NCBI GenBank assembly: GCA_051362555.1
Contig: CM120645.1
Coordinates: forward strand, 14,818,001 to 14,882,000
Source: Lingula anatina
Taxonomy: Eukaryota; Animalia; Brachiopoda
DNA length: 64,000 bases
Direction of reading: 5' to 3'
Numbering within the stretch: position 1 is the first letter of the stretch; every line of letters starts with the position of its first letter. This document shows, piece by piece, positions 13,802-64,000 of the stretch. The position numbers and the translations under genes were made by a program. The notes beneath the pieces are model-generated. The model saw only the letters and a list, made by a program, of their open reading frames with translations. It did no database searches and had not been told where the DNA came from.

Positions 13802-14508
13802 CTTGAAACTTGAAAATACACTATACTTTACCCCTCTCGACGTTTTAGAACTTCTTTCACAACATCTACCGGCCACTAGCCTCACGTTTCGAAAGGCATT
13901 TAGAGTTAATAAAAATAAAAATACGCAAAGGGCATATATTGTTTTGATGCTGACGTAGCTACCAAAACTTGGCAAAAAAACTTGAAACTTGAAAATACAC
14001 TATAGGACTTTACCCCTCTCGACGTTTTAGAACTTCTTTCATAACATCTACTAGCCTAACGTTTCGAAAGGCATTTAGAGTTAATAAAAAATAAATATAC
14101 GCAAAGGGTATCTATTGTTTTGATGCTGACGTAGCTACCAAAACTTGGCCAAAAAAACTTGAAACTTGAAAATACACTATACTTTACCCCTCTCAACGTT
14201 TTAGAACTTCTTTCACGACATCTACCGGCCACTAGCCTCACGTTTCGAAAGGCATTTAGAGTTAATAAAAAATAAAAATACACAAAGGGTATCTTTTGTT
14301 TTGATGCTGACGTAGCTACCAAAACTTGGCAAAAAAAATCTTGAAACTTGAAACTTTACCCCTCTCGACGTTTTAGAACTTCTTTCACAACATCTTCCGG
14401 CCACGAGCCTCATGTTTCGAAAGGCATTTAGAGTTAATAAAAAATAAAAATACGCAAAGGGTATCTATTGTTTTGATGCTGACGTAGCTACCAAAACTTG
14501 GCAAAAAA
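13802..14508. repeat. Tandem array, 4 copies of a ~170-180 bp unit
   Basis: Unit CTTGAAACTTGAAAATACAC...GCTGACGTAGCTACCAAAACTTGGCAAAAA starts at ~13802, 13981, 14158 and 14340. Confidence 0.95.
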
Positions 14509-29768: not shown

Positions 29769-30914
29769 AGCTTTGTTTTTGTCTATTAATGTATATACCG
29801 TATTTCAGAATTTATTTGTGCAAATTGTCAAACTAGTAAGTCATCCTCCATTTTTTACCGTCTTTCGACAGAAAAAAATGCCCTTAAATGTAAACTTGTA
29901 AATTCTGACCGTCACCCAGAAGACAGCCTCCGTCCGCCCCTGTGCATCTGCTCTCCTCATTCGGATTTTTATTGTTTATTTGTATATTTTTTTCTTTTGG
30001 AAAATAATCCGGCTTGTTTCTGTTTTTCATCAATTAGAGTGTTAGTATGATACAGAGTGCAAGCTTTGTTTAGATATATTATGAGAACTATTTAGCTAAT
30101 TAATGTTCTAAAATTACCTACATCAGTATGCATTAGTATTGAAGCTCTCCAATAATGTGAATTGTAATGTTATTTAATTTACCCAAAGCTTCAGTGATGT
30201 TATTACTAAAAAAATTGGTATTTGATTTATAACACATGAAACTGCCCCACCCTGTAGGAAAATATGCGGGTACATGTATGATAAGGGTTAACTTTAATTT
30301 TATGCGAATTTATTATTCCAATCTGTTACGGAAAGAGAATTGCTCGGTTTTCGGATTTTCAGGCGTTGTCATTATTCCGCCAGTACAATTATTCGAAATT
30401 TCGCCCGTACTGTAACGATTATGAAATCTCTGAGAGATAAATAAAGCTCTACGTCACCTACAGCTTTCAAAAGACATTCTCGGTTTAATTGATTTTTTTT
30501 CTAAACTGTATAATTCTTAATGATGATTCTAGTTCTAAATGAAATAAGATTTGGCAAAATCAAGGTCTTGTTATTACTGTTATTAATGCTCTAGGTATTC
30601 AACGTCTGGTCTAATTGAACCTGTCGATTTTAATTTTGGACCAGCAGATTTTCGGAAAGTGGTGATCCAAATGGTCATTGTAAGAATCGGATAACCGATT
30701 TTTGGTTTATTTTGATTAATGTAGACTTAAGCGGCCCATTTGCGTGATCTTTTATGTGAGGAGATAGGATTGCGAGGAGAATTGATTGACACTTCAGCAG
30801 CGTGGCTGTTTTGCAGTTTTCATTTTGTAGGAATAGACATTTTTGCGACACTCCTTTGTGCTTTTATGACACTTCAGACACCACATAGTATAATATCGTC
30901 AAGTTACATGTAGA

Positions 30915-33268
30915 GGGAGGGAATCATAACATGCATTCCGAAGGAGGATAGACCAAAACAATTTTTAAAAAATTGGCGCCCTATTACACTATTGAATACC
31001 GTTTACAAGATTGCCTCAGGTGTCGTATCAAGTAGAATAAAAACGGTATTGGATAAACTGATAAGTAAAGAACAGACTGGTTTCCTAAAAGGGAGATACA
31101 TAGGGGAAAATACTCGTTTAATCTATGATCTCATGCAATATACTGAGGAAAACCATGTACCTGGAATATTACTTCTAATAGATTTTGAGAAGGCATTCGA
31201 TAGTATATCATGGGACTTTCTAAATCAAGTTCTTATTTTCTTTAATTTCGGTCCAGACATAATAAATTACATTAAAACCTTTTATAAAAACATTACTTCA
31301 AGAGTAAATCAAGGAGGTCATTTATCCGAAATGTTTCAACCACAGCGTGGCCTGAGACAAGGTGATCCGATATCACCATATTTATTTTTGTTATGTTCTG
31401 AAATTCTTTCGGTAAGCATAAAGAATAACCCTCAAATTAAAGGAATACAAATTGGGGAAAATGAATACAAAATATCGCAATATGCAGATGACACGTCCTT
31501 AATCTTAGATGGTTCTGAACAATCCCTTAACGCCTCCCTACAGGATCTAAGATGGTTTGAAAAAATTTCGGGTTTAAAAATAAATTATGACAAAACTCAG
31601 GTTATTTGGATAGGGAGTAAAAAAAATTCAAATGAGAAACTGTGCAAAAATTGGACATTAATATGGGGTGCAACGTCTTTTAAATTATTAGGTATTAAAT
31701 TCTATGTCGAACTAGATACTATATGTGAAAGGAATTATCGGGGAAAAATTGAAAGTACTGAACGATTACTTAAACTATGGGAAAGACGAATTTTGACCCC
31801 CGTCGGCAGAATTACAGTGATTAAAAGTCTCATAATATCGAAATTTAACCATCTTTTTATTTCACTGTCTAACCCATCTAACCAAATAATTAAGGAGCTA
31901 AAAAAGCTAATCTTTGGATTTCTTTGGAAAGGTAAACCGGATAAAGTAAAAAGGGAAATAGTATGTAAAAAAATAAAAGATGGAGGACTGAATATGATAA
32001 ACGTAGAAGCTTCAATAATGGCATTCAAATTGACTTGGGTGAGACGGTTGATAAATAGGGAGGGTATTTGGCAAAATATCCTTTTGCATAGATATAAATT
32101 AGACTTGATGCTAAACTGTGGTTGTGAATATTTGCGCTTCTGTCAAACAGGCACACAGAATTTATTTTGGAAGGATGTTTTTTTAGCTTGGCAGGAATTG
32201 TTGAAAAAAAAAGAACAAATGACCGAGTTGAATAAAGTCCCCTTATGGTACAGTGACTCTTTGAGGATAAATAAAGAGACGCTGTTCCATAAAGAGATGT
32301 ATGATAAAGGATTTAGACAAGTGAACGATCTTATCAATGAAAAAGGTAGACTTTATTCATATAAAGAATTTTCTGAACTCTCCAATATTAAAATCAATTT
32401 TTTACAATACAATGGTATTATCGCAACAATAAATGATCTATACAGAAAAAAATTCAATCCACATAAAATCAAAATGTACGGTCCGTGGCAACCAGAAGGT
32501 ATACGAGTTATTGTAAGACAAACAAGGGGATCAAAAGATATGTACGACATATTAAATAGCTCGAATGCTAGGCCTATTTTTGAGGAAAAATGGTCAAATA
32601 TTTTTACTCCTCGGGATCATAGTTTTTGGGAAAAGATATATAAGAAAACCAATGTGTCGGTAAAGGACACAAAAATGCTGTGGTTCCAGTTTCGAATTTT
32701 CTATAGAATCCTCACCACAAATAACTTTGTATATAAAACTGGCCTAAGTCAATCACCTATGTGTACATTTTGCCACGAGGAGGTAGAAACTATATATCAT
32801 ATACTTTGGGATTGTAATATTGTACAAAACTTCTTACGCCAAGTAGAAGCATGGTTAATTTCTTGTAATATATATTTAAATTTCAGTAATATACAGTTTA
32901 TTTTAATTGACATTAATGAACGTAATGTATCCAATATAATCATGACTATACACATTAAGTTTTTCATATACAAAACAAAATGTCAGAAAGACGCACTGTT
33001 ACTCACAAAACTTCAACTTTATTTAGAAAATATATACAAAATCTATAAGCAAAAATACATTGTATCTCAAGACTTAGATAAATTCAATGTTATATGGCAG
33101 AAATGGAGGGGTATATATGGATTTGTGTAGTTGCATGTATACAAATTATTGACTATAATTTTCTTATTCGTTAAATCCTTGTGGACTTTGGTATTGTAAT
33201 GAATATTGTGTGCTTGTAAAAATTTATGTACTTGCTTTTTTTCTATTGCAATAAAAAAAAAAAAAAAA
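30915..33268 (+). mobile_element. 5'-truncated non-LTR retrotransposon (L1/Tx1 clade) nested in the 5' LTR
   Basis: 14-bp TSD AAGTTACATGTAGA (30901-30914, 33269-33282), single-copy in the intact 3' LTR. AATAAA running into poly(A) at 33250-33270. Starts inside ORF2 (GIITCIPK..KNWRPITLLN). Confidence 0.95.
30992..33130 (+). CDS. LINE ORF2 remnant: reverse transcriptase and C-terminal cysteine motif; endonuclease missing
   Basis: LIDFEKAFDS, GLRQGDPISPYLF, QYADDT, KLLGI, GGLN, CTFC..ETIYHILWDC; reading frame is open from the truncation point. Confidence 0.92.
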   Translation: MNTVYKIASGVVSSRIKTVLDKLISKEQTGFLKGRYIGENTRLIYDLMQYTEENHVPGILLLIDFEKAFDSISWDFLNQVLIFFNFGPDIINYIKTFYKNITSRVNQGGHLSEMFQPQRGLRQGDPISPYLFLLCSEILSVSIKNNPQIKGIQIGENEYKISQYADDTSLILDGSEQSLNASLQDLRWFEKISGLKINYDKTQVIWIGSKKNSNEKLCKNWTLIWGATSFKLLGIKFYVELDTICERNYRGKIESTERLLKLWERRILTPVGRITVIKSLIISKFNHLFISLSNPSNQIIKELKKLIFGFLWKGKPDKVKREIVCKKIKDGGLNMINVEASIMAFKLTWVRRLINREGIWQNILLHRYKLDLMLNCGCEYLRFCQTGTQNLFWKDVFLAWQELLKKKEQMTELNKVPLWYSDSLRINKETLFHKEMYDKGFRQVNDLINEKGRLYSYKEFSELSNIKINFLQYNGIIATINDLYRKKFNPHKIKMYGPWQPEGIRVIVRQTRGSKDMYDILNSSNARPIFEEKWSNIFTPRDHSFWEKIYKKTNVSVKDTKMLWFQFRIFYRILTTNNFVYKTGLSQSPMCTFCHEEVETIYHILWDCNIVQNFLRQVEAWLISCNIYLNFSNIQFILIDINERNVSNIIMTIHIKFFIYKTKCQKDALLLTKLQLYLENIYKIYKQKYIVSQDLDKFNVIWQKWRGIYGFV

Positions 33269-33359
33269 AAGTTACATGTAGATGTTCAGTGATTTTGTTA
33301 GAGGAAATTCAGCTTTTCAGGATAAAAAGGAATAATTGACATCCACGAAAGCCAGCAAT

Positions 33360-33488
33360 GTGAGTTTTATGATTGCTCTGTTGTATAAGTTAGTTTAACA
33401 TTCTTAATGCAGTTTAAAATTGTTTGTAACACTCTGTTTTATTTAAGAAGACATATTTATGTTCTTTTTTGGTTTGTTTTCGTTTTAG
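33360..33488 (+). other. Putative spliceosomal intron inside the LTR (identical copy at 39681-39809)
   Basis: Donor AAT|GTGAGT; long U-rich tract and acceptor TTTGTTTTCGTTTTAG|TC; lies between an Inr-like TCAGT (33286-33290) and AATAAA (33540-33545). Confidence 0.7.
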
Positions 33489-33604
33489 TCAGAACCATTG
33501 GACTACAAGTACTGATGCGTATCTGATGCTGGTTACTGAAATAAACATACAGAATATTTAACCAAGACTTTATTGTTCTCAATTAAGATCCGTGGGATCT
33601 TACA

Positions 33605-33621
33605 GTTCTGAATTGGCTTTC
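33605..33621 (+). promoter_or_regulatory. Non-canonical primer-binding site complementary to the spliced LTR junction
   Basis: GTTCTGAATTGGCTTTC directly follows the LTR-terminal CA. Its reverse complement GAAAGCCAATTCAGAAC matches the spliced LTR sequence GAAAGC[CAG]CAAT|TCAGAAC. Confidence 0.65.
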
Positions 33622-33626
33622 CAACC

Positions 33627-36600
33627 ATGTCACTTCAAGAGGAAATAGAAAGACAGCGTCATTTAATTGAAGAATTAGAGAGAGACATTGATCAATCTAT
33701 TCACTCTCTTTTAAGAGACATAAAGAGAGAACATTCACTTCTTACCAGTACACCGCACAATGTAGCTACTAGTACATCAATCAGTGAAGCTTCTATAAGC
33801 CCCATACCTCATCCAGGGACACCATACACATGTAGATCAGAGGGTATTTCCACAATGAATGCAGTGTCTGTGACATCTCCTGTCACAATGCCATCACTTG
33901 GTGCATTAAGTTCAAACATTCCAGCTTTCAGCCAGACGACATTCACATCTCACAATGTACCAGTTGTACCACAGTCTCAGTCTGCAATATCAACATCTAA
34001 TATACCAGTGTCTGTTGCGGTACCACTCACACCTTTTCCTAAACCTGTTTGGACAATGCAGGCTGCCCCTCTCACTGCTTCGCATGCAACACAGTCCATG
34101 ACATCACAGGGTGACCGTTTGCTGGGAAGTATTCCTGTATCATGTGAATTACCTGCGACTTCTCAGCTTACAGTGCCATCTCCAGCTGTATTTAGTACAA
34201 GCTTACCCGACTTTATTCACATAACACAACCAAATATTTATCATCCCCATGGTGCAGTAGCATTCTCCGCATCTCAGACTCCGATTCCAACGAGATTTGA
34301 AACAACAGCGTCTGTCGCAGTGCCACCCGCACCCATGCCTGCATACAGTATTCCATCTCAGACTATACAACACAGTGCAGTATATACACCAATATCTGAG
34401 TCTGTTTCACCAACAAGTGACTCACTGACCCCACTGATAGATGCAATGCAGTTGCCAAAGGTAGAATTGATGCCTTTTAATGGAAATCCTCTGCAGTACC
34501 ACCCATTTATGAGATCATTTGAAAACATGGTAGGACATAAAAATGTTCCTCATGCTGCAAAATTGGCCAGGCTCTTGCAATATTGTCGCGGCGAAGCTTA
34601 TAATCTTATACAGTGTTGCTGTGTTATGGAACCAGAACAGGGATATGCCACGGCTTTAAAGTTATTGAAAGAAAGGTACGGAGACAGTTACACTATTTTC
34701 CAGGCCTGGATACAGAAAATCATGAATAGGGGACCGGTGACGGATAATGTAGCTTTACGTCACTTTGCTGATGAGTTGAGATGCTGCTTTGAAACCTTGC
34801 GTGCAGTTGGGAGAAAGGAAGACATAAATAGTGGGGACTACCTACTTAAGATTGTACAAAAGCTGCCCCAATATATTAAACCCAGATGGTTGAAGTTGGT
34901 ACACAGTATCCGGTCTGAAGGAAGAAATCCTGACATAGGGGACTTGGTTAACTTTATCTCTTTAGCAGCAGACGAAAGGAATGACCCTGTTTTTGGCCAA
35001 CTTCTGTCTACTGGCAGAGAAGGAAGGAACAGACAGGTCACTGCCAATTACAGCACAAGTACCGACAGTCCACTGTGTGCCTGCTGTGGTTCACATCACA
35101 GTTTATTTAACTGTGAAGAATTCAAAGGTTTGAGAGTACAAGATAGACTAACTTTAGCAAAACAGAAGAATTTATGTTTCAATTGTTTGAGAACAGGACA
35201 TGTGGCCTTAAGATGTCCAGTGAACCGAGTATGCTCAGTAGAAGGGTGTGAACAGAAGCATACGAAATTTCTACATCTACCCCAGAGAAATGCAAACCAG
35301 AATATAGATGAAACGAGTACTGAAGAAGTTGCTTGTAATGCCACAGGGGCCGGGGTGGGCAAGCAAAAGATTGCACTTCCCATCATTAGTGTGAAGGTCC
35401 GTGGGCAAGGTCAAACCCAATTTGTTGAAACATATGCTCTTTTAGATAGTGGCTCAACTCAAAGTTTCTGTTCAGAAGAGTTAACAAGGTCATTGAACTT
35501 GGAATCTACCAGGAAAATTCACAACATTGTTTTGAACACACTTGGTCACCAAAAGAGAGTATTCAGTAAATCTGTAAACTTGGAGGTGACAAATGCAGAT
35601 GAAACTTTGATATATGACATGACAGATATATTGACTAGGCCCAAGCTAAATATAGGCACTGATAATATTGTTACTCAGGAAGAGTTGGACAACTGGCAAC
35701 ATTTGAAGGACATAAAGTTACCAGAAGTAGACATTGACCAAGTGCACATTCTTATCGGACAAGACATGCCAGAATTACTCAAACCAAGAGAGATCCGAGA
35801 AGGAAAGACAGGTATGCCATATGCAGTGAGAACAGCACTGGGATGGACAATCAACGGTCCAATTGGAGAAAGGTCAAGAGAAAATGTTGGAAGTTATTTT
35901 GTGAACACTTCCAATGAACTCCAGGACCAGATCAAGAACTTGTGGAAGCTAGATGGACATGATGAAGATTTTTCAGCTATGTCTGTCAATGACAAGAAGG
36001 TTATGACTATCTGGGAAAATTCATTACACTATGATGAAGAAAAAAAACATTACAGCATGGGCATTCCATTCCAAGAGCAGCCACTAAATCTCCCAGATAA
36101 CTGGCCTGTGGCAAATTTCCGTTTACAGTGCCTCAAAAGAAGGTTACAGAAAGACAAGTGGCTCCAAGAAAAGTATGTTGAAAGTATGGTAGAACTACGA
36201 GACAAAGGTTATGCAGAAGAGGTGAAAGAGGTCAGTAGAGATGATGGTTATGTTTGGTATCTGCCCCACCATCCAGTATTACACGCCAGAAAACCAGATA
36301 AAGTACGTATTGTTTACGACTGTGCAGCCAAGCACAAAGGCATTTCCCTGAATGATGCAATATATCAAGGCCCAGACTTAACAAACAAACTGATTGGAGT
36401 TTTACTGCGTTTTAGGCATCACCCCGTTGCTTTCATGGCTGATATTGAAGGAATGTTTTTACAAGTTAAGGTGGACGAGAATCATCGTGACGTGCTTCGA
36501 TTCTTGTGGTGGAAGGATGATGATATGAACAAACCAGTTCAAGTTTATAGAATGACAAGGCATCTGTTTGGAGGGGTATGGAGTCCAAGTTGTGCATCAT

Positions 36601-39236
36601 TTGCCCTACGGCGTACTGCGCTGGACAATTCCTTGAATTTCACCTCTCAGGCTATAGAAACTGTACTGCGGAATTTTTATGTTGATGACTGTCTCAAATC
36701 AGTACCTGATACACAACATGCGATTCAATTAGTTAAAGAATTGCGAGAATTATTGGCACTTGGAGGGTTCAAGCTCACGAAGTGGATAAGCAATTCACGG
36801 GAACTCCAACACTCTATTCCAGAAGCGGAGTGGGCCAAAGGAATTCCAACCTTAGATCTTGAACAAGATGAATTACCTGTGGAGAGAGCATTAGGTGTTT
36901 TGTGGGATGTGGAATCTGACAAACTTGGGTTCAATACGCTAGTCAAACAGAAACCTATTACCCGCCGAGGACTGTTAAGTGTTGTAAGCTCTGTGTATGA
37001 TCCCTTGGGATTTGTCAGCCCCTTTATTCAGAAAGCGAAAATGATGTTCCAGATGCTGTGCAAGTTGAAGATCGGCTGGGATGATCCATTACCAGAAGAC
37101 ATGGCTCATCAGTGGAACAAGTGGCAAAATGACTTACCTTTGATCAATGAGATGAAAGTTCAGCGATGTTTAGTACCACCAGCATTTGGTACCCCGATTG
37201 ATATTCAACTTCATCACTTCGCAGATGCATCTGAAAATGGGTACGGTGTCGTTACTTACCTACGTTTGACAAACGGAGAAGGCCACGTACACTGTGCATT
37301 TGTCATGAGTAGAGCTAGATTGGCCCCTTGCTCAGCGACCACAATACCCAGATTGGAGTTGTCTGCAGCTGTTATGGCAGTAGATTTAGATGAATTGCTA
37401 AGGAAGGAATTGGACTTTTCCTTTTCTCCTTCTGTCTTCTGGTCTGATAGCATGATAGTACTGCAATATATTGCAAATGAGGACAAGCGATTTAAGACTT
37501 TCGTGGCAAACAGAATTGCTAAGATAAGAGAAGTGACCTCACCATCTCAGTGGAGGCATATAAGTAGCAAATTAAACCCAGCTGATGACGTATCACGTGG
37601 TGCAACGCCCCAAGAGTTGGTCAGTAAGGAACAGTGGATTTGTGGTCCCTGTTTTTTGCAGTTTCCTGAGGCGGAATGGCCTAGTTCTCCTTACTTAGCA
37701 GAAGTAGAAGCTCATGATACTGAAGTAAAACAAGACGTTAGTGTCTACCATGCTGAGATTATGAAAACGGACATACTTGACAAGCTGATGGCAAGATATT
37801 CCACTTGGAATGAGCTAAAGAAAGCAGTAGCGTGGATATTAAGAGCAAAGTCTGTACTTAGGAGTAAAGTCTTAAAAAGGGTACAGCAAACGTGTGACTT
37901 GCTCTCTGTTGAAGAACTTAATGTGGCTGAAGAAGAGATTGTTAAGTATGTTCAAAGAAACATGACAAGGGAACAGTTTCAGAGCAAAGGTTTCAAAAGA
38001 CTATCGCCAGAAACCTTACCCAGCGGCATTTGGGTGGTTGGCGGTCGTTTGAGATATTCCAGCCTTGTGGAGACAGCCAAACACCAGTGGATTTTGCCAC
38101 AAAAGCATCCAGTTGTTTCTTTGATGGTGACAGTGAGACATTATCATAATGAAGCAGGGCATACAGGAGTGGAACATGTCCTTTCAGACATCAGACAGCG
38201 TTATTGGATTATGAATGGCCGTGCTGCCGTTAAACGAGAGATCTATAGGTGTATGTTGTGCAGAAAGTTAAAGGCCCCGACACTTGAACAACGAATGGCT
38301 GATTTGCCGAAGAATCGCACAGAAGCATTTCTACCACCCTTTACTATAGTGGGCGTTGACTTTTTTGGACCATTCTTTGTAAAACGTGCACGTAGTGAAG
38401 AAAAGAGGTACGGTTGTCTGTTCACGTGCCTAACATGCAGAGCAATACACATTGAGATATCTCATTCACTAAGCACCGATTCGTTCCTGAATGCTATGCA
38501 GAGATTCATTTGCCGACGAGGAGAACCTGAGGAAGTTCGCTCTGATAATGGAACCAATTTCACAGGAGCACATCGTGAACTGAGGGAACATATTAGTAGG
38601 TGGAATCAAAACAAGATAACGGACTGTTTACGTCAAAGGGAAATTAAGTGGGTGTTTAATCCTCCCTGCGCGTCACATATGGGAGGGATATGGGAACGGC
38701 AAATTAGAACAGTGCGATCAGTTCTCAGCTCATTGTTGGCTCAACAACCGCTCAAGTTGGATGATGAGGCTCTTTGTACTCTTATGTGCATAGTGGAGAA
38801 TATTGTGAATTCAAGGCCTATCACAAAGCTTTCTGATGATCCCAAAGACCTGTTGCCACTGACGCCTAATCATCTTTTACTGTTGCGTTCAGGACCAGTG
38901 TTACCACCTGGGGAATTCGTGAAACAAGATATGTACCATAGGCGGTGGAAACAGGTTCAGTATATTGCTGACTTATTTTGGCAGCGTTGGCTAAAATAAT
39001 ATCTGCCTTTGTTACAAGAGCGGCAAAAGTGGTTCAGTGTTAAGCGAAATCTCAAAGTTGGGGATTTGGTATTAGTGAAAGATGAAAGTACCCCGCGTCT
39101 GCAATGGCCAATGGGCTTGGTGACAAATACAAGTCCAAGTATGGACGGCCGTGTTCGCTCAGTCCAAGTTGGAACACAACATGGAATCTTCAAGGTACCA
39201 GTGACAAAACTTTGTCTTCTGGAAGGTGTAGACTGA
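33627..39236 (+). CDS. Bel/Pao Gag-Pol polyprotein with one premature stop at 38997-38999
   Basis: Gag LPKVELMPFNG and Cys/His knuckles; protease LLDSGS; RT ADIEGMFLQ and NFYVDD; Pao RNase H HHFADAS..IPRLEL..WSDS..NPADDVSRG; integrase HHCC plus GVDFFGP, SDNGTNF, GGIWER. The frame resumes after the TAA (K*YLPLLQERQKW) and runs to the stop at 39236. Confidence 0.95.
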
Positions 39237-39577
39237 TGTGATGGATGTTAAAGTGGTAAAGTCATAGACCTTTTAATTACAACATAGACAAAATATTGTA
39301 ATCTGGGTCTGTGGTTAAATTTATAATATAATTTATGCAATGTGGGTACATGTGCATAAGGGGCCGGTGTAAGAATCGGATAACCGATTTTTTGTTTATT
39401 TTGATTAATGTAGACTTAAGCGGCCCATTTGCGTGATCTTTTATGTGAGGAGATAGGATTGCGAGGAGAATTGATTGACACTTCAGCAGCGTGGCTGTTT
39501 TGCAGTTTTCATTCTGTAGGAATAGACATTTTTGCGACACTCCTTTGTGCTTTTATGACACTTCAGACACCACATAG

Positions 39578-39611
39578 TATAATATCGTCAAGTTACATGT
39601 AGATGTTCAGT
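39578..39611 (+). promoter_or_regulatory. LTR core promoter: TATA-like box and initiator
   Basis: TATAAT at 39578 and TCAGT at 39607-39611; the A at 39609 is 31 nt after the first T, the canonical TATA-Inr spacing. Confidence 0.6.
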
Positions 39612-40343
39612 GATTTTGTTAGAGGAAATTCAGCTTTTCAGGATAAAAAGGAATAATTGACATCCACGAAAGCCAGCAATGTGAGTTTTATGATTGCTCT
39701 GTTGTATAAGTTAGTTTAACATTCTTAATGCAGTTTAAAATTGTTTGTAACACTCTGTTTTATTTAAGAAGACATATTTATGTTCTTTTTTGGTTTGTTT
39801 TCGTTTTAGTCAGAACCATTGGACTACAAGTACTGATGCGTATCTGATGCTGGTTACTGAAATAAACATACAGAATATTTAACCAAGACTTTATTGTTCT
39901 CAATTAAGATCCGTGGGATCTTACAGTCATTAAGCTGAAAGGTTTATGGAGCAGACAGGTAAATTCTACTCAACAGTTTGAATGTATTCTTAGAAAAGTC
40001 GCTTTTAATACAATACCAATTGTTAAAGGGGAACACCGTGAATCTCATTTGTGCGCTCGATAAAATCTGTTATCATTTGCGTATTTATTGGATACAGCAT
40101 CAGACTGATAGTACATTTATATTATATCAAACTGATAATTATATGACAAAACGTCCTACTCTATATTGTCTGTGACGACGGAATACAAATACTCTAGACC
40201 TAAAATGTATTCGCAGCTACGTGTATGCTCGGATCCGATTGTACATTAGACTTCATTTAGAAGAAAAAACAGATGAGATGGGACAATTCTTGATATAAAC
40301 CAATGTATTTTACAGGTAATGTCATTTACAAAACTTTATACCG

Positions 40344-43300
40344 ATGGTCCTTTTTCTACTGAAAATGGCTGACCATACGCAGGTACCAGAGGAAACTGTG
40401 CATTCGAACGACATATCTGCAGGAAACAGTGCAGCCGACGGTGAAGACTTCTCCCTTACCTTAAACTCCTCGCACGAAGAGGAACACACTGAAGTTAAAG
40501 ACAGCACACCCTATGGCTGCTACTTCTGTCTCAAAGTGTTTGCCTCGTTTCTCTTCGCGACTGCACTGCTTTTCGCCTTAGTGGCCAACAAGGTGACAAT
40601 ATACGCCATATCTCACAGCTTGTCAAACCACTCCTCAGGTTCTGGACCCAATGAATTGACCATCGATACCATCGACCAGAAGATATCAGTGTTTATGTTA
40701 ATGGTCATCTTGATTATTCCATACGGCCTGGCGTCTCTGCGCTGTCTTTGGAGTTCGGGGGTGCTTCAGACCTTGACGCGGAACCTTTTTTGTTTCTGCT
40801 GTTGCGCCAACTTTTCCTGTTCCAGAGCAAAGCGCGACTTGGAGACGCCGTGGCCTTCATGGGGGCGTATAGCTTTGGTCAGTATTATAAAATACAGTGC
40901 TTTTATTATGTTTTATAATAACTGTTATTTTTCCATCCCGGTAAATGATATGGGGATGACCATCTTTATCAAAGCGTGATTTTACCTCTCTTGTATGCTT
41001 TTCATGGTGGGATGTTTAAAATGGGGAGTTCATTCATTTCAACACATTGCTGTGGCACACGTATGTCGCTTACTCAAATTATTATCAACTCAGAATATTT
41101 TTAACCAGTGATTATAGCACAAGTGTATTGTAACTGAAAACAGAAATTATAGAACATATAATGTTAACCTTCCAGATATCATTGAAACGCTATATCGTGA
41201 CATACCTTTATATAGTCCATACGTCAATGATAAAACCCAATCTAAACGATAACATACCACGCCACCAGAGCTAGGCCCTGTATATCAGACATCTTTCACA
41301 TATTCATTATACAGTACTAGTATATAAAGCACTGGGCATGCCCCCCCCTTCCCGGCACAGCCCGGCCCTGTATAGTGGTCCCATGCATCTGTTACCGTAC
41401 ATGCATTGGGCAGGCGTTTGGCACTTCTTTCAACCTGCTTATCACTGTTAATACGAATCCTAATATTTGATATTAAATGTTGCATTAAATGAGATAAATC
41501 AATGCAGTGAAAGCCATATCATCATTATTATTGACTGGTTTGTGCTACCAAAAATAAGAGGTTTATTGAGTAATTGTCTTTTGTTATTTAATGTTTGGTT
41601 AATGTCTTATAATCAATATGGCCTGTATTTTGATTTATTATAGATAATAGTGACAAGTCTTTTGGAAGTCCTCGGCCTCTGGATCATCCTTCTGTACGTA
41701 TTCCCTTTCTCAACCGGATTGGAAAGCGTTTTGTCGTCTGCCTTGGTTTTCCTCGGCTGCAACATATCCGATCTTCTCCTTTGGCTCAAAGGGAAATGTC
41801 TCCATGGCGATGAACAAACCCAACAGGAGCCCAACGCCCGAACAAAACTTTTCACCGCTTTGTTTAATACAGTCCCTTTATTTCTAAGTGCAATCGGCCT
41901 ATTCCTTTTGCTGTTCTTTGATAAGGATATTAGACATGATGGCGAACGCGGGGAAAGTTCCCCTATTGCATGGTCCCTCCCACTAGGTGTCGCTCTGGTA
42001 GCTGTGTCTTGGGTACCAACTATACTACAGTGGCAAGTGACCATTACACCCAAGAAACAATTGCCTATCTCACGCATTCGTTTTCAGTTGCTCGCAGAAG
42101 ATGAAACTGGAGTTTCCATTTTTCCAGACGGATGTCGCTGGAAAGCTGGCTTGATTTCAAACTTCTTGAAAGTGTTTTTTGTTCCACTTGTCCTGCTCAT
42201 TCTAGGAGAAATTTATACTCAAAACGATGCCATAATTAACATTGCCCTGTTAATATCACCGAATGAATTTGCCATCTACGTTTTCCACCAAGAGTTTTTC
42301 TGGTATTTCATTATCAATATATTCTCTAGTTTTTTGGGGTATTTATTTGCATGGGCTACGATTGCGATTTCCTTTGGGTTTACCTGTCGGTTTTGCAAAA
42401 GTAAAAGAATTTTCATTTCCGCCCTCTTCTTCCCGCTTATCACCGCCTCGCCATTGGCGGCAATTTTGATCGGCCTGGAGCGCACGTGCTTGGTGATGCT
42501 TCCTCCTGAGCAATGTCATAGTCAGGATGAGTTAAGCTGGGGTTTCATTGCCACCGTCCTGATTCTGGTAGCTAGCTTTGTTTCATGTGGAGTTTGGATA
42601 GTCACTACAAGGCCCCGGACTATACTAACAAGCGAGTCTCAGGTGAGAAAAATTGACCGTCTGTTTTGGATTTTACCTGTTTATTCATAATATTATATTA
42701 AGAAATTATTTAACATATTCAAAATGCATAGTTTCACAACGTGTATAATACATCGCATTTATGCACAACCCGTTTGTTGAAGTATTAAAAAAGTGTTTCT
42801 TTTCCTAGATCTTTTGGCATGCTAACTACACTGGTGCTTTGTTGGAGCAATGGCTTTGGCTAAATCGTAAGACAGAGAAAAAAGATCTAACTCCAGTGCC
42901 AACTGACAAGGAAAAGAAAAATTGTGTTATCTATTTATGTACAACAATGTGTAATGAGGTAGGATACACAGTGTTGTTGTTCGGAATTTCTTTTTTAAAC
43001 CATAAATAAACATCAAACTCGCATAGTCAGACAGTCAGCTTGAATAACATTTGCTTCTTGAGTTTGTAAAGACAATAATACGTTTCAGCACTGAATTTAC
43101 GACACTGAAATAGATGGTGATCCCAAAGGAAAATGTGTATGTTCTGTAGTGGAAAATTCCTGTTTTAGTCAGAAGAGGAAATGACCCAACTACTTCTTTC
43201 TTTGAAAAATGTCATTGATGGTAGAGACAGAGGATCGCCATTGTTCCACTCTCACGTATGGCTAGATGGTGCTTTTGACACCAAGACGAAACCAGAAAGT

Positions 43301-49300: not shown

Positions 49301-52287
49301 TTTGGATGGAAGCTTTTAAGAATCGTTTGCTCCTTCTTTCATTGAATTTAGTATTATTTTTAATTTGTTTCATTGTCAGAAACTATTTCGGTATGATATT
49401 GTGTTCATTTTGATTGTGTTAAAGGAACTCGCGAATCCGAAAAAGAACAAGGCAAAGATGGAGTTCTCGGAAATTTTTTTAGAGATCTAAAATCATTTTG
49501 GTAAGTACAATTGAGATCTCACAGATTGACATAATTGGTGTCTGGATTTCCATTTACAAATACAGATTTTTTGCAAATATGATACAAGGCGATTGGTAAA
49601 GTTGACTCTATCACACTGAAAGCTCGCCAATAGGCTAATATACACATGCAGAAGTTAGACCATGTATCTGTTGTTTACCTCAGAATTCTTAAAGAATGTC
49701 ATTTAAATAAAAATGTTACCTTTTCTCAAGTATTCATAAGTGTTTTTTTTTTTTTTTTTTTTTTTCGCAGCTGTCCTGTGAAAGCAGACCGAAGTTCTGC
49801 CATGGAAATGGAAAACATGGACTCTGAAGGCGATGAGAATTCAGGTATTCTAATAGCTGTTTTCTTAACAAAAGTTCTTCATACCTTGGCTGATTGACTC
49901 ATAAAATGACGTTATAATTTGGAAATAATGGACAGCATCGAGTCTGAAGTTGATCAGGACCTAGGTATACTATTCTCTGTTTCCTTAAAAATTCGACGAA
50001 AATAGTCTGAATGACTCATACTTAAATGACATTGTTATTTGTAAATTGCAGTCATTTTTCATAATTTCGAGAGCTGTTTACCAATTAAAAATTATTCAGT
50101 TTAAATTGAAAAGAACGAGCTCGCCAGGACTCGAACCTGGAATCTTCTGCTCCGTAGGCAGACGCGCCACGAGCCCTTCTGTAGCTAGAATGATAAACAA
50201 CCGGCCGACACCGATACCTGAACCATTTTGAAATATGGTCTTAATGAAACTGTCTCAAATAGAATAGTTTTTGTCACATTTTGATGCTTCAATTGATAGT
50301 TAAAATTGATTTTCAATGTCCATTTCGCTGTAGTTGCAAATCTAACCAAAACTGTCAAATTACAGATATACCGTTCACTAGATCAAGAAGAAGGCGAAGA
50401 TTCCAACCGCCAGCTGGTACGTTCTCGGCAGACGACTGGCTTCGCGCGCAATTTTATGAAAAAGAAATACACGTAAGTTGCTTTAACAAAACAGTGAATT
50501 ATTGCAATGGCCTGTAAAAACGTATTTCGCAGCCGACAGGATTCGAACCTGTGCGGGGATACCCCAATGGATTTCAAGTCCATCGCCTTAACCACTCGGC
50601 CACGACTGCTGTATTATTACCTAAAGTTTCCTATGGAAAGGGCCAGAAGACGTGCGAACATCATATTAGAAATGCGTTTTTCCCCAAAAATGACGTGCAC
50701 CAGTTTATTTTCATTCACAGCAAGACACTTTTACTTTAAGGTTATCTAAAACCTTAAATTTCACTGTGGTTAAGACCAAATGGCGTTAGATATCTGCAAT
50801 TTCGTGTGTGAATTCTTAAGCCTTTATATATTCATTGCAGGCTTGCTCGCCTATGTTTGATGCGCTTGGCTACGGAGATACAAGTTTCATTGCAGGGATG
50901 TCACGAGAGGTAATTACCAATGGATCATTCATTATCCAGTGTTATGTGTCGGAATGATATTCTTGAGGCACGGACATATTCTGAGACATGTTGTATAAAA
51001 TTTACCCTCTACCAGGGCGACAGATAGATTTTTTACAGATATTCACAGATATGTCTCTAGATAGATAGACGGTCATTTTGGTCTGAAGTCACTTGAGGCA
51101 CGGACATATTCTGAGACATGTTGTATAAAACTAATATTACTCTAAAATAGGACAGAATATACTTAAATTAAACATACATCACCATAAGTAACTTTCGTGT
51201 ATTTCGTAGAAAATATAAAAGGAATGAATCCAAAGGTAGAGAAGTGAACTCAGTATATGCAAAAGCTTATACCCTCAGGGGAACAGCATGTACCCTGGGA
51301 ATGTTAAGGAACCAATGGTTTTATGTGCTATTTCAGGAAATTCGTCAAGTTGGTTTAACCAATCCTAAACATATCAACACCGTATACCGAGAAGCACAGT
51401 CTTTGCCGCCATTTTCTATTGACCCAAGATGGCCGATCACAGAGGTTTATTTGAAAGATTGTCATTTGTAATGATAATGTCCAATGTACATGTTGATTTC
51501 TTACACTGAAACTTACGACATTTTACTGACAAAAATAGGTTTGATTCATTTTAAAGTACAAAGTTCCTTGTCTTTTTAAATAATTCTTGATTTGGCAATT
51601 AAAGTGAAAATTCTTCATATTTTCATCGTAGCAGTTGCGTATAAAAAAAAACGAGCACCATGACACCTGAAATGTTATTTTTAATTGAATGGGATTTGTA
51701 GACGGAAAAGCGCATCAAATGGGTGAACAGAGTTGGCCTAATGGATTATAAAGATAGTCTGCTGGAAAAGTTTGACGACCTGCCTTCTACAACGAGCAAA
51801 AGTAAACTGAGAGTGAAGTATGGAATACATAAACCAGGTAAATAAGACGTGTAATGATACTTCTAACGCACGGACACATTATTTTAGTGCTACCTATCGT
51901 ATTAAATCGGTAAACAAAATTTTGGATCCACCGGCTATGCATTATCTCCTCCAAAAGGGGTCAGCTCTTTACATGCAGTGTACATATTGTGCTTTTTTAC
52001 TCATTGAAAATGAAATTTATTGCTTGAAATATTGTGTTTTCAATGTTTTAACTATCAATAAATGACAATGATTTTTTTTAATCTTAGGGCACTTGAAAAG
52101 ATTGTACACGGCCATACAGCAACTGCGGACACCAACAGGCGGTATTTATTATAATTTTTTATTTATCAATTTATTTATTTTTTTTTGTTTGTTTGTTTAT
52201 TTATTTATTTTTGCTTAGAGAAACTAATATTCCAACTCTTCATTTACTACCTTTTAGTCGCTACTCCAACGCTGAACTCTCTCTCTC

Positions 52288-57500: not shown

Positions 57501-60500
57501 ACACACGAGGTTCACGACGCTTGGTTTAAGATGAAAATATCTGTCTTTTAGTTCTTAAAATTTCAGAGCAGAGCTTTTTTTGCATTGGAACAACGGTAAA
57601 AGAGCTTGTTTAAAGTCTATTTGCTCAATATCTGTTTATGAATTACTCAGCAATGAATCATCTAAAAAATACACATTTTGCATAAACATTATAGAACTGA
57701 GCACACATGAACTTAACTGCCACTTACACGAGAGAAGTGTTGTTGATACCATCTGACCAAGTGTACTTCTCGCTGTAGATTCTGTGCAATCCCGTCCACC
57801 ATCGATACGTTTCTGAGTCATGGAGATGGAACGTTTTGACTGCTGTCAACAACCATTCCTTTGACATAAATAATCATTGTGAATAATACCCAATATAAAA
57901 CGACTGTTTAAAATAACTCTTTTTAAACATTTGAATACAACGATTCCCTGGATGATTATCTTCTTTATTATTCTATGAACAAATAACTGCCAGCAGTGAC
58001 GTCAAAATAAATTAATAGGTAAATAAGCTACAATATTGCCAACTACAATACACTTCTGACCATTAGCAACGAACTAATCTATATACCAATGTTCACCTTT
58101 GCGCCCACTTTTAGTAATCATCTTTTAAACGAGCGTACAACCACAGTTATATTAGGTTAACTTATCGCTAGTCATTTTGAACGTCGGGTGATGGTTTGGC
58201 ATCGAGTATATCAGATTGCGTGAATTATGAATCACATTTCTTTATACATGTAAGCACTTTTCAAATTTTAGAAAATCTGCCGAAGGTAAGATGAAAACCA
58301 TTTTACCTTTTCTCTTTTGGACAAAATTGAAACTAGATCACCTCCACTGGCCAGGCAGTCAATTCTTGCATCAAACCATGTCTTGCCTACTTTTCTGTCA
58401 CTAAACTGGTAACAGTTATCATTCACCGAGCTTTCAAAGTATCCATGAGGACAAAGGGTTGGGGTGTCTATTTGAAAAAGAAACAAAGCAATATTCGAAA
58501 CTAGGATAAATTTGATATAATTAGATATAACTTCATTATGAGAATCGTTTTAAATGGATACATATAAATGGAAGCTAAAATGAAGTCCTGAAGAATACAT
58601 ATCTAATTTGATGCACTAATTGTACCTAACAACTAAATGCAATTGTAAAGATTATATTTTGCATAAGAGAGAGAAACAAGGAGAAAGAACATCTAGCACT
58701 CCTTACTGATTGGCGATTATTGTTCCGTACCTTTCACTGTGATTTTCTTTGACTTGCAAATGTAAGGTCGGCTTCTTGTACAATCAAGGTCGTTCAAATT
58801 ATAATCTCGGAAAATCTCTGCGCAATTTTGTGACCCATACTTATTATTAGGCTGTCCTGGGGACCATATTCTGCTTTAAGTGTGAAATGGAAGTTTTTTA
58901 TCATTTAGTTGAACTGTTATGAAGATAAACATAAAATGGTAAACCGCGTAAATTGTTATGTTGCTCCTTAGACCACTGTATATTAACAGCATGAACTAGA
59001 AAATCAGTCGTCTTAACTATTTGACTTATCCAGATCTCTCTAAACCGTTTAAGAAATATAAGTATAGGTTAGCACAATGCCATTGTACAGAATGCAACAC
59101 TTGAACGTTCCCATGGTAGTTAAATATCAAAGCAACATTATTTTTTATCCTTATGATATTAACTAACAAGACAATAATTTGCATTTCCCTTCGGAACTCT
59201 GAATGAAAAGGACACATTTCACTAACTGCACGAAAATAACTTACGAGAGAGACGTATCGGTATTCCCGTCAGCCCATTTAAAATTGTTGCCATTCAGCCT
59301 GTTATAACCAGTCCACCATCTATCATTGTCTAAATCGTGCATCTGGTATGTCTTTAAGACCAAGTCCAGCCAGTCCTGAGGGTAAAACGTAAGATGTACA
59401 TGTCATTAGTTTCTTAACATTAACTCTTCATTGAAATGTTTCAGCAGCTGCATTAGTACATACATGTACCCTGTGTGTCCCAGCACAAGCCACACTCACA
59501 TACTGACGACATGAAACTCCAGTTAATTAAGGGTACGAGCTAACATATTGACAAAGATATCAAAATGCTTCTGGACAAAATCGGTGTCTATTTTTTCTCT
59601 AATGACTCCTTGCAAAATACGTGTGTGTCGAAATAATCTGTTTAATCTTAGAATGAAAATGGGTTCTTCACCTTTTCAAGTTTAGACGAAAAGGAAACCA
59701 GGTCACCGCCATTGGCCACACAATCAAACCTTGCATCAGCCCATGGTTTGCTTGCTTTTATGTCATTGAATCGGTAACAGTGATTGTTTTGTTGGTTCTC
59801 AGTGTACCCCAAGGGGCACTGGCTGTGGATGGCTTTAATTCAAAGAAATAAGAAAGAGATGCCTATAAGATCATAAAAACGGTAATATAGAAGATAAGAT
59901 TCACTATTTATTTTCACCACATGTCTTTGACATTTTGTTGCAAAATGGTTCAATAAGTTAATTCTGGGATTATGATGTAATTTGCTTTCAGCATGCAGGG
60001 AGCGCTGTAAACATAATCTTAATATTCAATTTTGCTCGACTTTTTTGTAAAAACAACGTATTAAAACTGAGTCAGGTTCACTGTTCTCTGTTTTAGCCTG
60101 GGGACATTGATGATAGGTAAATGTTTATTAATAAAACAATAAAAACCGAGCGATATTAATATAATATAAAATAACATAAGAAGATGGGGAAGCAATTGCT
60201 ACACCAGGTTGCCGACTGATTGGCGGCTTTTCAGTATATTGCGCTTGCTCCTTACAATTGCGATGGCCAACATTATATTTAACATAAGAGAGAATGAAAG
60301 AAAAAGAGGGAGGCGAGTTAAAGGATAATCAAGCACGCCTGACTTATTAGCGACTTTTGTTCATTACCTTTCACTGTAATTTTCCTTGCTTTGCAAATGT
60401 AAGGCCGGCTACTTCGACAATCGAGGTCGTTCAGATTATAATCTGGGTAAATCTCGACGCAGTTTTGTGTCCCGGCCAAATTATTGGGTTGCCCTTGGGA

Positions 60501-63500
60501 CCATACTCTGTTTTAAATATGAAATAAAAATGAAGCTTTATATATAATTTGGTTGTTATGTACATAAACATACAAAGTTTGAAACACAATTTTTTTTTGT
60601 ATATACGTCATCAATCCATTATCAGTCTCCTCTTTTTACGTCTCTGTTAATGACTTACATGGTAAGACCAGTATCTTGCACATCTCCCCATATCTTAAAT
60701 TTTCAGAGGAAATACATATACAATGAATGGGGCAAATTCATTAGCAAAATGTGCAGATTGCACGAAAAGTTCGTTCTTGTCTCTGAATACTTACGCAACG
60801 GATGTATCATTATTGCCGTCAGACCATAGGAATCTATTTCCATTCAACTTGTTATAGCCAGTCCACCATTTATCATTCTTTGGATTGTAGTTCCGATATA
60901 TTTTTAACACGGAGATCAACCATTCCTAAAGTTCAGAATTATGATATAAATATTAGTTCAAGGTGCAATGTATCTTTTCCTATCATCAATGTCATTGTTT
61001 TTGAATTATTTAAATTGAAAAAAAATAGTACTGATCTCAGACAAATATGATTAGAAGAAATCGATGACCAATTTTGCCTTAAATTTATCATTTGCAACAT
61101 TTTACAGATATTTGCTTTATGGCTGCAATTGGTGCAGTGATACGCTTGTTAACAGTCATAAAGCCTGGAATTTTAAACTTAAAGGGTACACCTTAAAGCA
61201 ATAATAACTCTTCGTTTCGGCCAAAAAATGAATTTTCCTGGAGTAAACAACAATTTTCCCATACTTTCCAATGGTTAATGAATCCATTTTTACATTCAAA
61301 GTTGGTCCCTGTTTTTTTTCTAAAAAGTTTGGTTTTTTGTTAAAATCTCTTAAGAGATTTTAACAGAGTATAGCCATCAATGGAGGTCACGTGGTCTAAA
61401 GACAAGCTCAGATATCAGGATAATAGCTATAACTGCTGTTTTTGTGGTAAAACAGAATATATTATATTTCTATGAGTTATTCACAAGATTTTTGTTGTGA
61501 AATATAGATCTCATACGAAGAGTTATTATCCCTTTTATGAAGGTTTCTATGATAAATATTATCCGTTTTTTATAAACCTTTTTAAATTAGTGTTTTATAC
61601 ATTCTTTCAAGTCTCAATCCCCTTCATTAGAATCACCAAAAAGATTTCAAAAACCCTTCACATGCAACCTTTCCATATTCGGATAATATCTCGACAAGTC
61701 TCATTCCATCAATTGCTCTGGATGCCCATACATCTGTTTTATGTATGGGGAGGGCAAATCATTTCGTTACCTTTTCAAGTTTAGACGAAAATGAAACCAG
61801 GTCACCGCCATTAATCACACAATCGAACCTTGCATTAGCCCATGGTTTGCTTGCTTTTATGTCGTTGAATTGGTAACAGTAATTGTTGAATCGGTTCTCA
61901 ATGTACCCCGAGGGACACTGGTTGTGGATGGCTTTAAATGAATGAAATAAGACAGATATATCTACAAGTTCATAAGACCGGTCACACAAAAGATAAGATT
62001 CACTGCTTAAGTTTCACTATACTCATCTAACTACTGGCTACACGTGGTATATTGTTGCAAAAAAGGTTATATAGATAAAATCTAGAATTATGATCCAATG
62101 TTTTTTCAGCGTGCACAAAGCACTGTAAACATCATCTTAACCACCGATATTGTCTTTGCTTTTTGTGAAAACACCATGATAAAATGAATCAGATTCACTA
62201 AGCCTGTTGTAATCTAGGGGGACTGAAGATGGCAACTGTTTGTAACAATAGAAAACCGATCGATATTGACAAAATATAAAATTACATCAGAGGGATGGAA
62301 GACAACTGCTACGCCTGGCAGCCGCCTGATTGGAGGCTATTTCAATACCTTGCGCTGCTGTTCTCTTTGCCTTACATATGTATGGCCGACTACTTAAACA
62401 GTGAAGATCGTTCAGATGATAATCTGGAAAAATCTCTACGCAGTTTTGTGGCCCAGACAAATTGTTAGGCTGTCCTGGGGACCATATTCTGTTTCAAATA
62501 TGAAATAAAAAATGAAACTCGTTACAGTATTGTGATGACTTATCATCAACATATGCATAAGAAGTTAGAGTGAAGCTGTGGCGTATTCATTTCGAATAGT
62601 CAAAATACAAAGCTGGAAAAACAGTATTTCACTTTATTTTATGTTATATAGTCATCAATTCATTATCAGTATCAATTTATTTTACGTTTTTTATTAATAA
62701 TTTACACTGTAAGACCAGTATGTTGCACATCTAGCGCATGTCTTAAAACATCAGAGGAAATACATGTACAATGAATTATAATAATTAGGCAAATTCATTG
62801 GCAAAAAGTGCAAATTGCATGAATTGTTAATACTGTCTCTGAATACTTACGCAAGGGATGTATCAGTATTGCCGTTAGACCATAGGAATTTGTTGCCATT
62901 CAGCTTGTTATAGCCAGTCCACCATTTACTATTGTTTGGATCGTGATTCCGATATGTTCTCAACACTGAGTTCAACCATTCCTGACGATTAAAATATAAT
63001 AGGATAATAGTTCAAATAAGGTGCGATATATAGATCTTTACAATCATGAATAATATCATTTTTATCATTGGTGCTGTATACATTGAATTACTTCAGATTG
63101 AACAAATTAATATGCTTCGAAAAAATCATTTCCTTTCAAATAATAATATTTTACAGACACTTGCTTGAATGACTGCAATTACTGAAGGCTACAGCTTTAG
63201 CAGATATTTAGCCTGAATCTAAAATGTCAAGGGGTTTATCTTATTTAAGGTTTTCTTTATAGTATCAGTTGCGTTGTTAGACACTATGCATTTCATGAAC
63301 TCTTGCCAGTCAAAAATTGAATCCTTAAAAAAACATTTAAATCCAAAAACTCTCCACGTGTGACTTTTTTTTTCTTTTCGTCGATTCTTCATCGATATCT
63401 AGTTTGACATATACTCATTCATCTGTCTAATGTAAGAAGGACTTGGTTGCTTTACCTTTTCAAGTTTAGACGAAAATGAAACCAGGTCACCTCCATTAAC

Positions 63501-63616
63501 CACGCAGTCGGTCCTTGCCTCAGCCCAAGGTTTGCTTGCTTTTATGTCATTGAATTGGTAACAGTCATTGTTCACTGGGCATTCGATGTAACCTGGTGGG
63601 CACTGGCTTTGGATGG
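54569..63616 (-). CDS. Extracellular mosaic protein: at least 4 C-type lectin domains, VWA, Thr-rich mucin stalk, EGF-like, VWC-like; 5' end lies beyond the window
   Basis: Each CTL has three exons (161/131/140 nt): 63616-63456, 62981-62851, 62488-62349; 61931-61771, 60925-60795, 60507-60368; 59832-59672, 59375-59245, 58870-58731; 58467-58307, 57858-57728, 57325-57195. Then VWA plus mucin 56933-55713 (ADIAILVDSSGS, FSDG), 55415-55320 (PCQPNPC), 55113-54999 and 54674-54569 (CEKRCIC..CP..GC..GKCC). Confidence 0.88.
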
Positions 63617-64000
63617 CTAGTCAAAACAATGTCTTGATGTCAAAATAACAGTCATGTTGTGAATAAGATGCACTGAAATAGCTCTGGTATTTTAAAAATA
63701 ATTTTATCATTTTGATTTTAGAATTAGTTCAAAGTTAATGATATATTCAATGAATTGCCTTTTTTTGGAGAAAAGAAAGTTTTTTTAAAAAAAGTAAGAC
63801 GCTGAAATCGCTTTCACTTAATTGCAGCTGTCCTGAGCTGGGTGCAATTAGTGGGGAGGCAGGTTTGTAACAAAATGGAGGGATTTAAAAGTATCCTCAT
63901 TTATAACATAAAGGCAAATGTTGAAAAAATCGGACCAATTTTACAAGAAAAAAGATGATGAAACTGACCAGAAAGCAGTAGAAGTTTTACATGCCTTACC

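Follow-up and report, generated by a model that had tools for sequence, protein, structure and literature searches.

The window analysed here, 64,000 nucleotides of the Lingula anatina genome (Brachiopoda; assembly GCA_051362555.1, contig CM120645.1, positions 14,818,001 to 14,882,000 of the forward strand), carries a complete insertion of a Bel/Pao LTR retrotransposon at 30679–39925 (+ strand), flanked by a 5-bp target-site duplication (30674–30678 and 39926–39930). Gag and pol are encoded in a single ORF of 1790 aa (33627–38999, +), in which Pfam identifies DUF1759 (residues 284–426), Peptidase_A17 (1112–1275; 1.8e-46) and an integrase (1503–1680); RVT_1 fell below the cut-off, and a YVDD motif is present. 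These are the Pao-type proteins of Bel/Pao elements (Belpaoviridae), while no match to a chromodomain, the protein feature looked for in Ty3/gypsy chromoviruses, was found in the element with Pfam. The LTRs are 558 bp long with inverted ends, which fits the 0.2–1.2 kb expected of Bel/Pao. A polypurine tract (39358–39367, +) lies directly before the 3′ LTR; its form, a run of G followed by CCGG, is near-invariant across the lineage and is shared by the window and most related loci. The element is thus Bel/Pao by protein, and it is in priming that it departs from the profile given for the family by ICTV.

The 3′ LTR is intact (39368–39925, +) and contains, in order, a TATA box (39578–39585) located 31 nt before an Inr A at 39609, an intron (39681–39809) and AATAAA (39861). 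The first-pass annotation had read this same order in the 5′ LTR, where it does not stand, as a 5′-truncated LINE (30915–33268, +; RVT_1, zf-RVT and a poly(A) tail, with an open frame of 738 codons) parts the TATA-like box (30889–30896) from the Inr. What had been taken for the 5′ LTR is in fact only its downstream part (33269–33604, +; 0 differences from 39590–39925), the U3 part being found at 30679–30914 (+; 2 differences from 39368–39603) on the far side of the LINE and its 14-bp duplication (30901–30914 and 33269–33282). Both the split promoter and the interrupted pol had been missed; the latter ends at a premature stop in the integrase region (38997–38999), beyond which 78 more codons continue in the same frame. 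Compared over 558 sites, the two LTRs show 2 differences. The copy is young but probably dead, since the LINE parts TATA from Inr in its 5′ LTR and its pol is cut short, and the LINE probably silenced it soon after insertion.

The downstream part of the 5′ LTR nonetheless bears the features on which the present argument turns, and here the first-pass coordinates hold. An Inr-like TCAGT places the start of a predicted exon 1 (33288–33359, +) at A 33288, a position predicted from the TATA/Inr spacing of the 3′ LTR. It is followed by a predicted spliceosomal intron of 129 nt (33360–33488, +) with U2-type signals, namely a GTGAGT donor that conforms to GTRAGT, a T-rich pyrimidine tract and a TAG acceptor of the YAG form, and by an AATAAA poly(A) signal (33540–33545, +). 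The LTR ends in CA at 33604 with no TGG, and hence no tRNA-type primer-binding site, at its 5′ copy's end, and only 22 nt separate it from the gag ATG at 33627. Immediately after the terminal CA lies a candidate non-tRNA primer-binding site of 17 nt (33605–33621, +).

The pairing that had been proposed between this site and the spliced LTR RNA is reproduced in full. Seven bases on the exon-2 side of the junction (33489–33495, +) pair with 33605–33611, and four on the exon-1 side (33356–33359, +) pair with 33612–33615, giving an 11-bp core across the junction; after a 3-nt bulge, a second-helix arm (33347–33352, +) adds 6 bp with 33616–33621. All 17 pairs are Watson–Crick, and the duplex abuts the LTR-terminal CA, so that the predicted primer 3′ end falls at 33495. 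Unspliced RNA offers 7 contiguous bp at the start of the site. The predicted duplex energy is −22.0 kcal/mol for spliced RNA, whereas the two sides taken singly in unspliced RNA give −10.7 and −12.8. When the intron was chosen blind to the site, this one was top-scoring, and the best match to its junction anywhere in 33272–39925 was the primer site. When the post-LTR sequence of the window was shuffled 5000 times and tried against 12 candidate junctions at 6 offsets, 11 bp was reached once. A self-complementarity of about 11 bases, as used to recognize the Tf1/sushi group, is therefore present in the window after splicing.

A comparison among related families, which the first-pass annotation had put forward as a test, carries most of the weight. 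Relatives with the same Pfam families numbered 4501, and the alignment comprised the window protein and 26 of 120 relatives among the matches listed. The nearest named proteins among the matches listed belong to echinoderms, fish, a nemertean, a priapulid and abalone; 45 pattern matches in viral contigs included no relative. Loci were drawn from metagenome contigs (the best 80 of 558 qualifying) and, together with the window, fell into 58 families at 90% RT identity, with RTs 47–61% identical to that of the window. A first set of 32 families was curated, and a further 26, initially set aside, were then examined. In all, 39 of the 58 could be evaluated, of which 30 (the window and 29 others) are of the intron type, 8 are intronless and 1 is decayed. 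For sixteen of the remainder the contig did not include the LTR or the sequence after it, and three gave one side only (L009, L056 and, by eye, L003). An apparent hit in L027, at the start of its contig, was discarded as an artefact.

The intron-type families pair over 10–16 bp across the junction of an LTR intron of 75–423 nt, and the intronless families pair directly over 9–12 contiguous bp. Within the curated 32, there are 25 intron families with 10–15 bp (exactly 11 in 15 of them, and 10 bp with weaker donors in two), 6 intronless families with 9–12 bp, and the decayed L075, which has kept its donor in the 3′ copy alone. The families first set aside added five of the intron type, L011 (7+4), L055 (6+4), L078 (6+5), L079 (7+9) and L071 (3+8, its 3-base exon-2 side read by eye), and the intronless L046 and L068, each with 11 bp. 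The LTR end was defined by divergence between the two copies in 10 of the 32 (8 intron-type, 1 intronless and 1 decayed); for the other 22 it was set from a terminal ACA or ATA after the result of the first scan had been seen.

In that first scan, which took in 51 of the 80 loci besides the window, every GT-AG pair was admitted at each of about 100–250 positions, without weighting. The best spliced match fell 0–5 nt after the LTR end in 24 families, and in 20 of these 24 the donor was GTAAGT or GTGAGT, which occurs at only 32 of 1207 GT dinucleotides in such LTRs. This unweighted count is the fairer one for donors, because donor strength was weighted in the curated pick, where GTRAGT is found in 23 of the 25 intron families, a YAG acceptor in 24, and a mean pyrimidine fraction of 0.73. 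A branch-point-like motif occurs in only 6 of the 25 introns, and neither a conserved branch point nor a conserved start site or Inr/TATA spacing was found across these families. A primer of 79 nt in the window would follow from the predicted start site.

Several controls bear on how the match should be read. With a single site-blind intron per LTR, 17 of the 32 families had their best match anywhere in the contig, 11–14 bp long, at 0–3 nt after the LTR end; the 15 misses comprise the 6 intronless families, the decayed one and 8 in which another donor or acceptor matched. Under a permissive site-blind filter at 11 bp or more, a family's own site matched its own junction in 21 of 32 cases, as against 18 of 992 foreign pairings, all 18 of them among close kin sharing the same 11-mer. 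L007 and L013 failed this filter on pyrimidine content, yet pair over 11 bp with GTAAGT donors. None of 1600 downstream control windows reached 10 bp. The families are related, not independent, and these control counts are not probabilities. The sites comprise 21 distinct 11-mers in 25 families with one invariant position, and the site is therefore not a fixed host sequence. A TGG was found at the LTR end in none of the 32 families (the window and 31 others), a single incidental one occurring at offset 1 inside a family that matches its own junction, and the sequence after the LTR yielded no alternative primer site in the 32. Clearly, junction and post-LTR site change together across Bel/Pao families as divergent as these.

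The second helix is also family-specific, with a mean energy of −6.65 kcal/mol as compared with −3.73 (0 of 20,000 permutations; 31 families). RNA upstream of the core therefore matters, and the primer would not simply be the transcript's first 11 bases. In folding predictions, the duplex forms with P > 0.5 in 13–17 of 20 spliced leaders and in 1–2 of 20 unspliced ones. The window itself counts against this, the predicted probability in its spliced leader being 0.79, 0.56 and 0.00 with 30, 50 and 72 exon-1 bases, respectively, and 0.96 only for a start at 33330. From the predicted start at 33288 the duplex does not form in the fold ensemble (P about 0), because an exon-2 stretch (33523–33533, +) is predicted to take the junction into a competing hairpin.

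The intronless families (L043, L046, L064, L067, L068, L072, L073 and L080) occur at several places on the RT tree, where the intronless state requires 3 changes for the 6 families tested, each beside intron-bearing kin. On the midpoint-rooted tree, an ancestral intron with subsequent losses is the simplest reading. L043, with an LTR of 177 bp, is sister to the intron-bearing L008, and a comparison with L008 and L013 makes the intronless families look like products of precise intron loss. They keep the same pairing geometry as their intron-bearing relatives, which agrees with their being progeny of fully spliced RNA, as the model below predicts. The share of the primer encoded by exon 2 varies by clade, being 3 bases in L035, L047 and L071, 4 in L049 and L053, 6 in L004, L025, L030, L032, L055, L063 and L078, and 7 in the rest, with the total staying at about 11. 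These differences resemble an apparent sliding of the intron.

An LTR element needs a 3′-OH at the end of U5 to begin minus-strand synthesis, and here the only candidate is the element's own spliced RNA. The window element would then, with good likelihood, prime its minus-strand DNA with a primer that is built by splicing, in a manner resembling the self-priming of Tf1. The intron signals, an 11-bp core ending at the LTR-terminal CA, the second helix and covariation across families form the basis of this reading at the DNA level, and it is the comparison between families that lends support to the first-pass proposal of a spliced LTR RNA as primer. The host spliceosome would remove the LTR intron and so join the two halves of the primer. 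By analogy with Tf1, the element's RNase H may cut after the seventh base of exon 2 (33495), leaving a 3′-OH at the LTR end, and reverse transcriptase would copy U5 and R before jumping to the 3′ end of the genome RNA. From that end the new LTRs would take U3, exon 1 and the intron, and the 3′ copy must therefore be unspliced in the RNA that is copied, as the copying scheme and the near-identity of the two LTRs also suggest; were it spliced, intronless progeny would result, as in the 8 families. Copying of the primer during plus-strand synthesis is established for tRNA primers. Here, it would extend over the last 11 or so bases of the spliced primer and could keep site and junction matched.

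Whether such a primer would act in trans or in cis is close to an even question. A spliced LTR transcript priming a fully unspliced genome RNA is slightly favoured because it is the simplest account of intron inheritance, with a cap-proximal primer in cis almost as probable. Counted against the scheme is that a strong intron in the 3′ LTR, beside a poly(A) signal, should splice often, yet the intron persists. Intronless families exist and look viable, so frequent 3′ splicing should have erased it. For the lineage as a whole, one could tentatively suggest, at somewhat less than even chances, that a widespread group of aquatic Bel/Pao elements uses the spliceosome as a switch, in which a spliced primer supplied in trans serves an unspliced genome RNA unable to prime or cut itself. 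The intron would then be an ancient part of the cycle, and the intronless self-primers would have arisen through reverse transcription of spliced RNA.

Self-priming has precedents in other superfamilies. In Tf1, the RNA's first 11 bases pair with a site after the 5′ LTR and the primer is freed when RNase H cleaves between bases 11 and 12, according to the accessible text of PMC7175516. Tf1 and Tf2 of S. pombe, and the Tf1/sushi group of Ty3/gypsy more widely, are likewise described there as lacking a tRNA site and relying on an 11-base pairing of their own RNA, and 11 bp is also the commonest length of the core in the present families. The Lingula element differs in superfamily and in that a predicted intron divides its 11 bases, which would be brought together only by splicing. 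Nor are they the first bases of the RNA, given the covarying second helix upstream of the core, and the RNase H cut is here an extrapolation from Tf1. Self-primers have also been predicted for plant Tcn1 (gypsy) and for TAR, Houba and Osr-1 (copia), from LTR complementarity of at least 10 bp located 0–5 nt after the LTR (PMC6317226, accessible text). The intronless families conform to that rule except for L064 (9 bp). The plant screen requires a contiguous match, and an element with an intron-split primer would be counted in it among those that lack a primer site; the accessible part of that paper makes no mention of an intron. In fungal GalEa, a Conserved Hairpin Site stands directly after the 5′ LTR and the tRNA site is lost (PMC5445492). 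That hairpin lies downstream of the LTR, and the accessible text reports no complementary LTR sequence and no intron.

For Bel/Pao itself, the ICTV profile of Belpaoviridae (PMC8742986) names a primer site of 18 nt that is complementary to tRNA-Arg or tRNA-Gly, and describes replication as poorly understood. The window element shares with that profile its LTRs, a polypurine tract, one gag-pol ORF and Pao-type domains; unlike it, neither the window nor the 31 other families has such a site, to judge from the lack of a TGG at the LTR end. Primer and tRNA terms are absent from the accessible portions of three Bel/Pao papers (PMC3118150, PMC554778 and PMC6238403), those of PMC8220671 make only generic mention of primers and tRNAs, and in PMC3601003, as far as its accessible text goes, self-priming appears only as a possible ancestral state. 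No description of Bel/Pao self-priming or of a primer built by splicing was found in a search that stopped short of subscription journals, Repbase, GyDB and supplements.

A pairing that is real and requires splicing could conceivably be regulatory instead, acting as a bridge in splicing of the 5′ copy or as a switch in translation, dimerization or packaging, with priming left to another RNA or site. Only the 5′ LTR intron has the site after it, which would provide the asymmetry that the life cycle needs, and in the window the site lies a few bases 5′ of the gag ATG. Such a role is unlikely, as the duplex always stops within 0–5 nt of the LTR end, including families in which gag begins hundreds of bases downstream, the pairing is kept by intronless families, and the 32 families offer neither another primer site after the LTR nor a TGG at its end. 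The primer might also form on unspliced RNA as a three-way junction in which the "intron" is looped out and its splice signals serve some other purpose. This would dispense with a second RNA and explain intron inheritance, and the exon-1 arm of the window alone gives 8 contiguous bp (−12.8 kcal/mol); moreover, no joint was listed among the reads fitting 33272–39589 (29, 4, 3 and 18, from four of nine runs), a depth too low to test splicing. What makes it very unlikely is that 30 families, with introns of 75–423 nt, all have the break in the pairing precisely at GT and AG, that exon-2 pairing is predicted in so few unspliced leaders (1–2 of 20), and that the intronless families resemble precise losses (L043 against L008 and L013).

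Many of the sites begin with GTTCGAA, which resembles the T-arm of a tRNA. The primer might be a tRNA of the host, half of one or some other host RNA, the self-match being secondary. The ICTV treats the family as tRNA-primed (PMC8742986), and half-tRNA primers are described for Ty1/copia in the accessible text of PMC6317226. Against this, 25 families carry 21 distinct 11-mers, each matching its own junction; the single tRNA-Ser of the window (TGA anticodon, a gene or pseudogene at 50528–50609, −) pairs only loosely with the site (−8.6 kcal/mol), and no Rfam match lies at 33200–33700. This makes a host primer even harder to credit. As for chance, an AT-rich LTR offers many possible GT-AG pairs, and spliced matches of 8–11 nt do turn up as second-best in the permissive scan, but fortuitous complementarity beside fortuitous splice-like motifs is effectively refuted by the controls (a single shuffle in 5000, and none of the 1600 control windows) and by the recurrence of the same position in 30 families. 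Priming by the element's own spliced RNA remains the preferred reading.

Reverse-transcription priming in Bel/Pao has so far been assumed to use host tRNA (ICTV). If spliced self-priming is correct, a large Bel/Pao lineage would do without tRNA priming, and its replication would hang on a host splicing event, giving the host a direct point of control. Standard screens for primer sites would miss this whole class of primer, and the intronless families would record, in nature, how introns are precisely lost through reverse transcription. Under the model one would expect a read across the junction, an RNA that ends at the seventh base of exon 2, and RNA joined to DNA at the LTR end.

Some further observations concern the families and the window more generally. 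Across the 25 intron families, the predicted primer 3′ end is AC (22) or AT (3), and the next base is most often C (17) or G (5), which could possibly reflect a cleavage-site preference. ACTTAC, the reverse complement of a splice donor, is repeated within the first 130 nt of the LTR in L013, L031 and L080 (three copies each) and in L022 (two), and is also seen in L068. The distance from primer site to gag, 22 nt in the window, reaches about 130–400 nt in L064, L072, L073, L067, L057 and L058. Just 3′ of the 3′ LTR are two open frames (40320–40979 and 41644–42690, +), of which the first contains hydrophobic stretches and has no Pfam match, and they are possible targets of LTR read-through. The stretches 58665–63694 and 13825–14508 carry degenerate repeats spaced at about 1.6–2.1 kb and an array in which about 175 nt is present in four copies. 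In run X1, four reads fit the window up to 33364 and then continue into unlike sequence (median 77 letters), and none runs upstream of 33272; they may derive from a sister family, from an LTR that has been rearranged or from a chimeric transcript driven by the LTR. A sister subfamily does appear to be transcribed, since four reads of run X4 (33592–33690) carry a diverged U5 that runs into the same post-LTR site.
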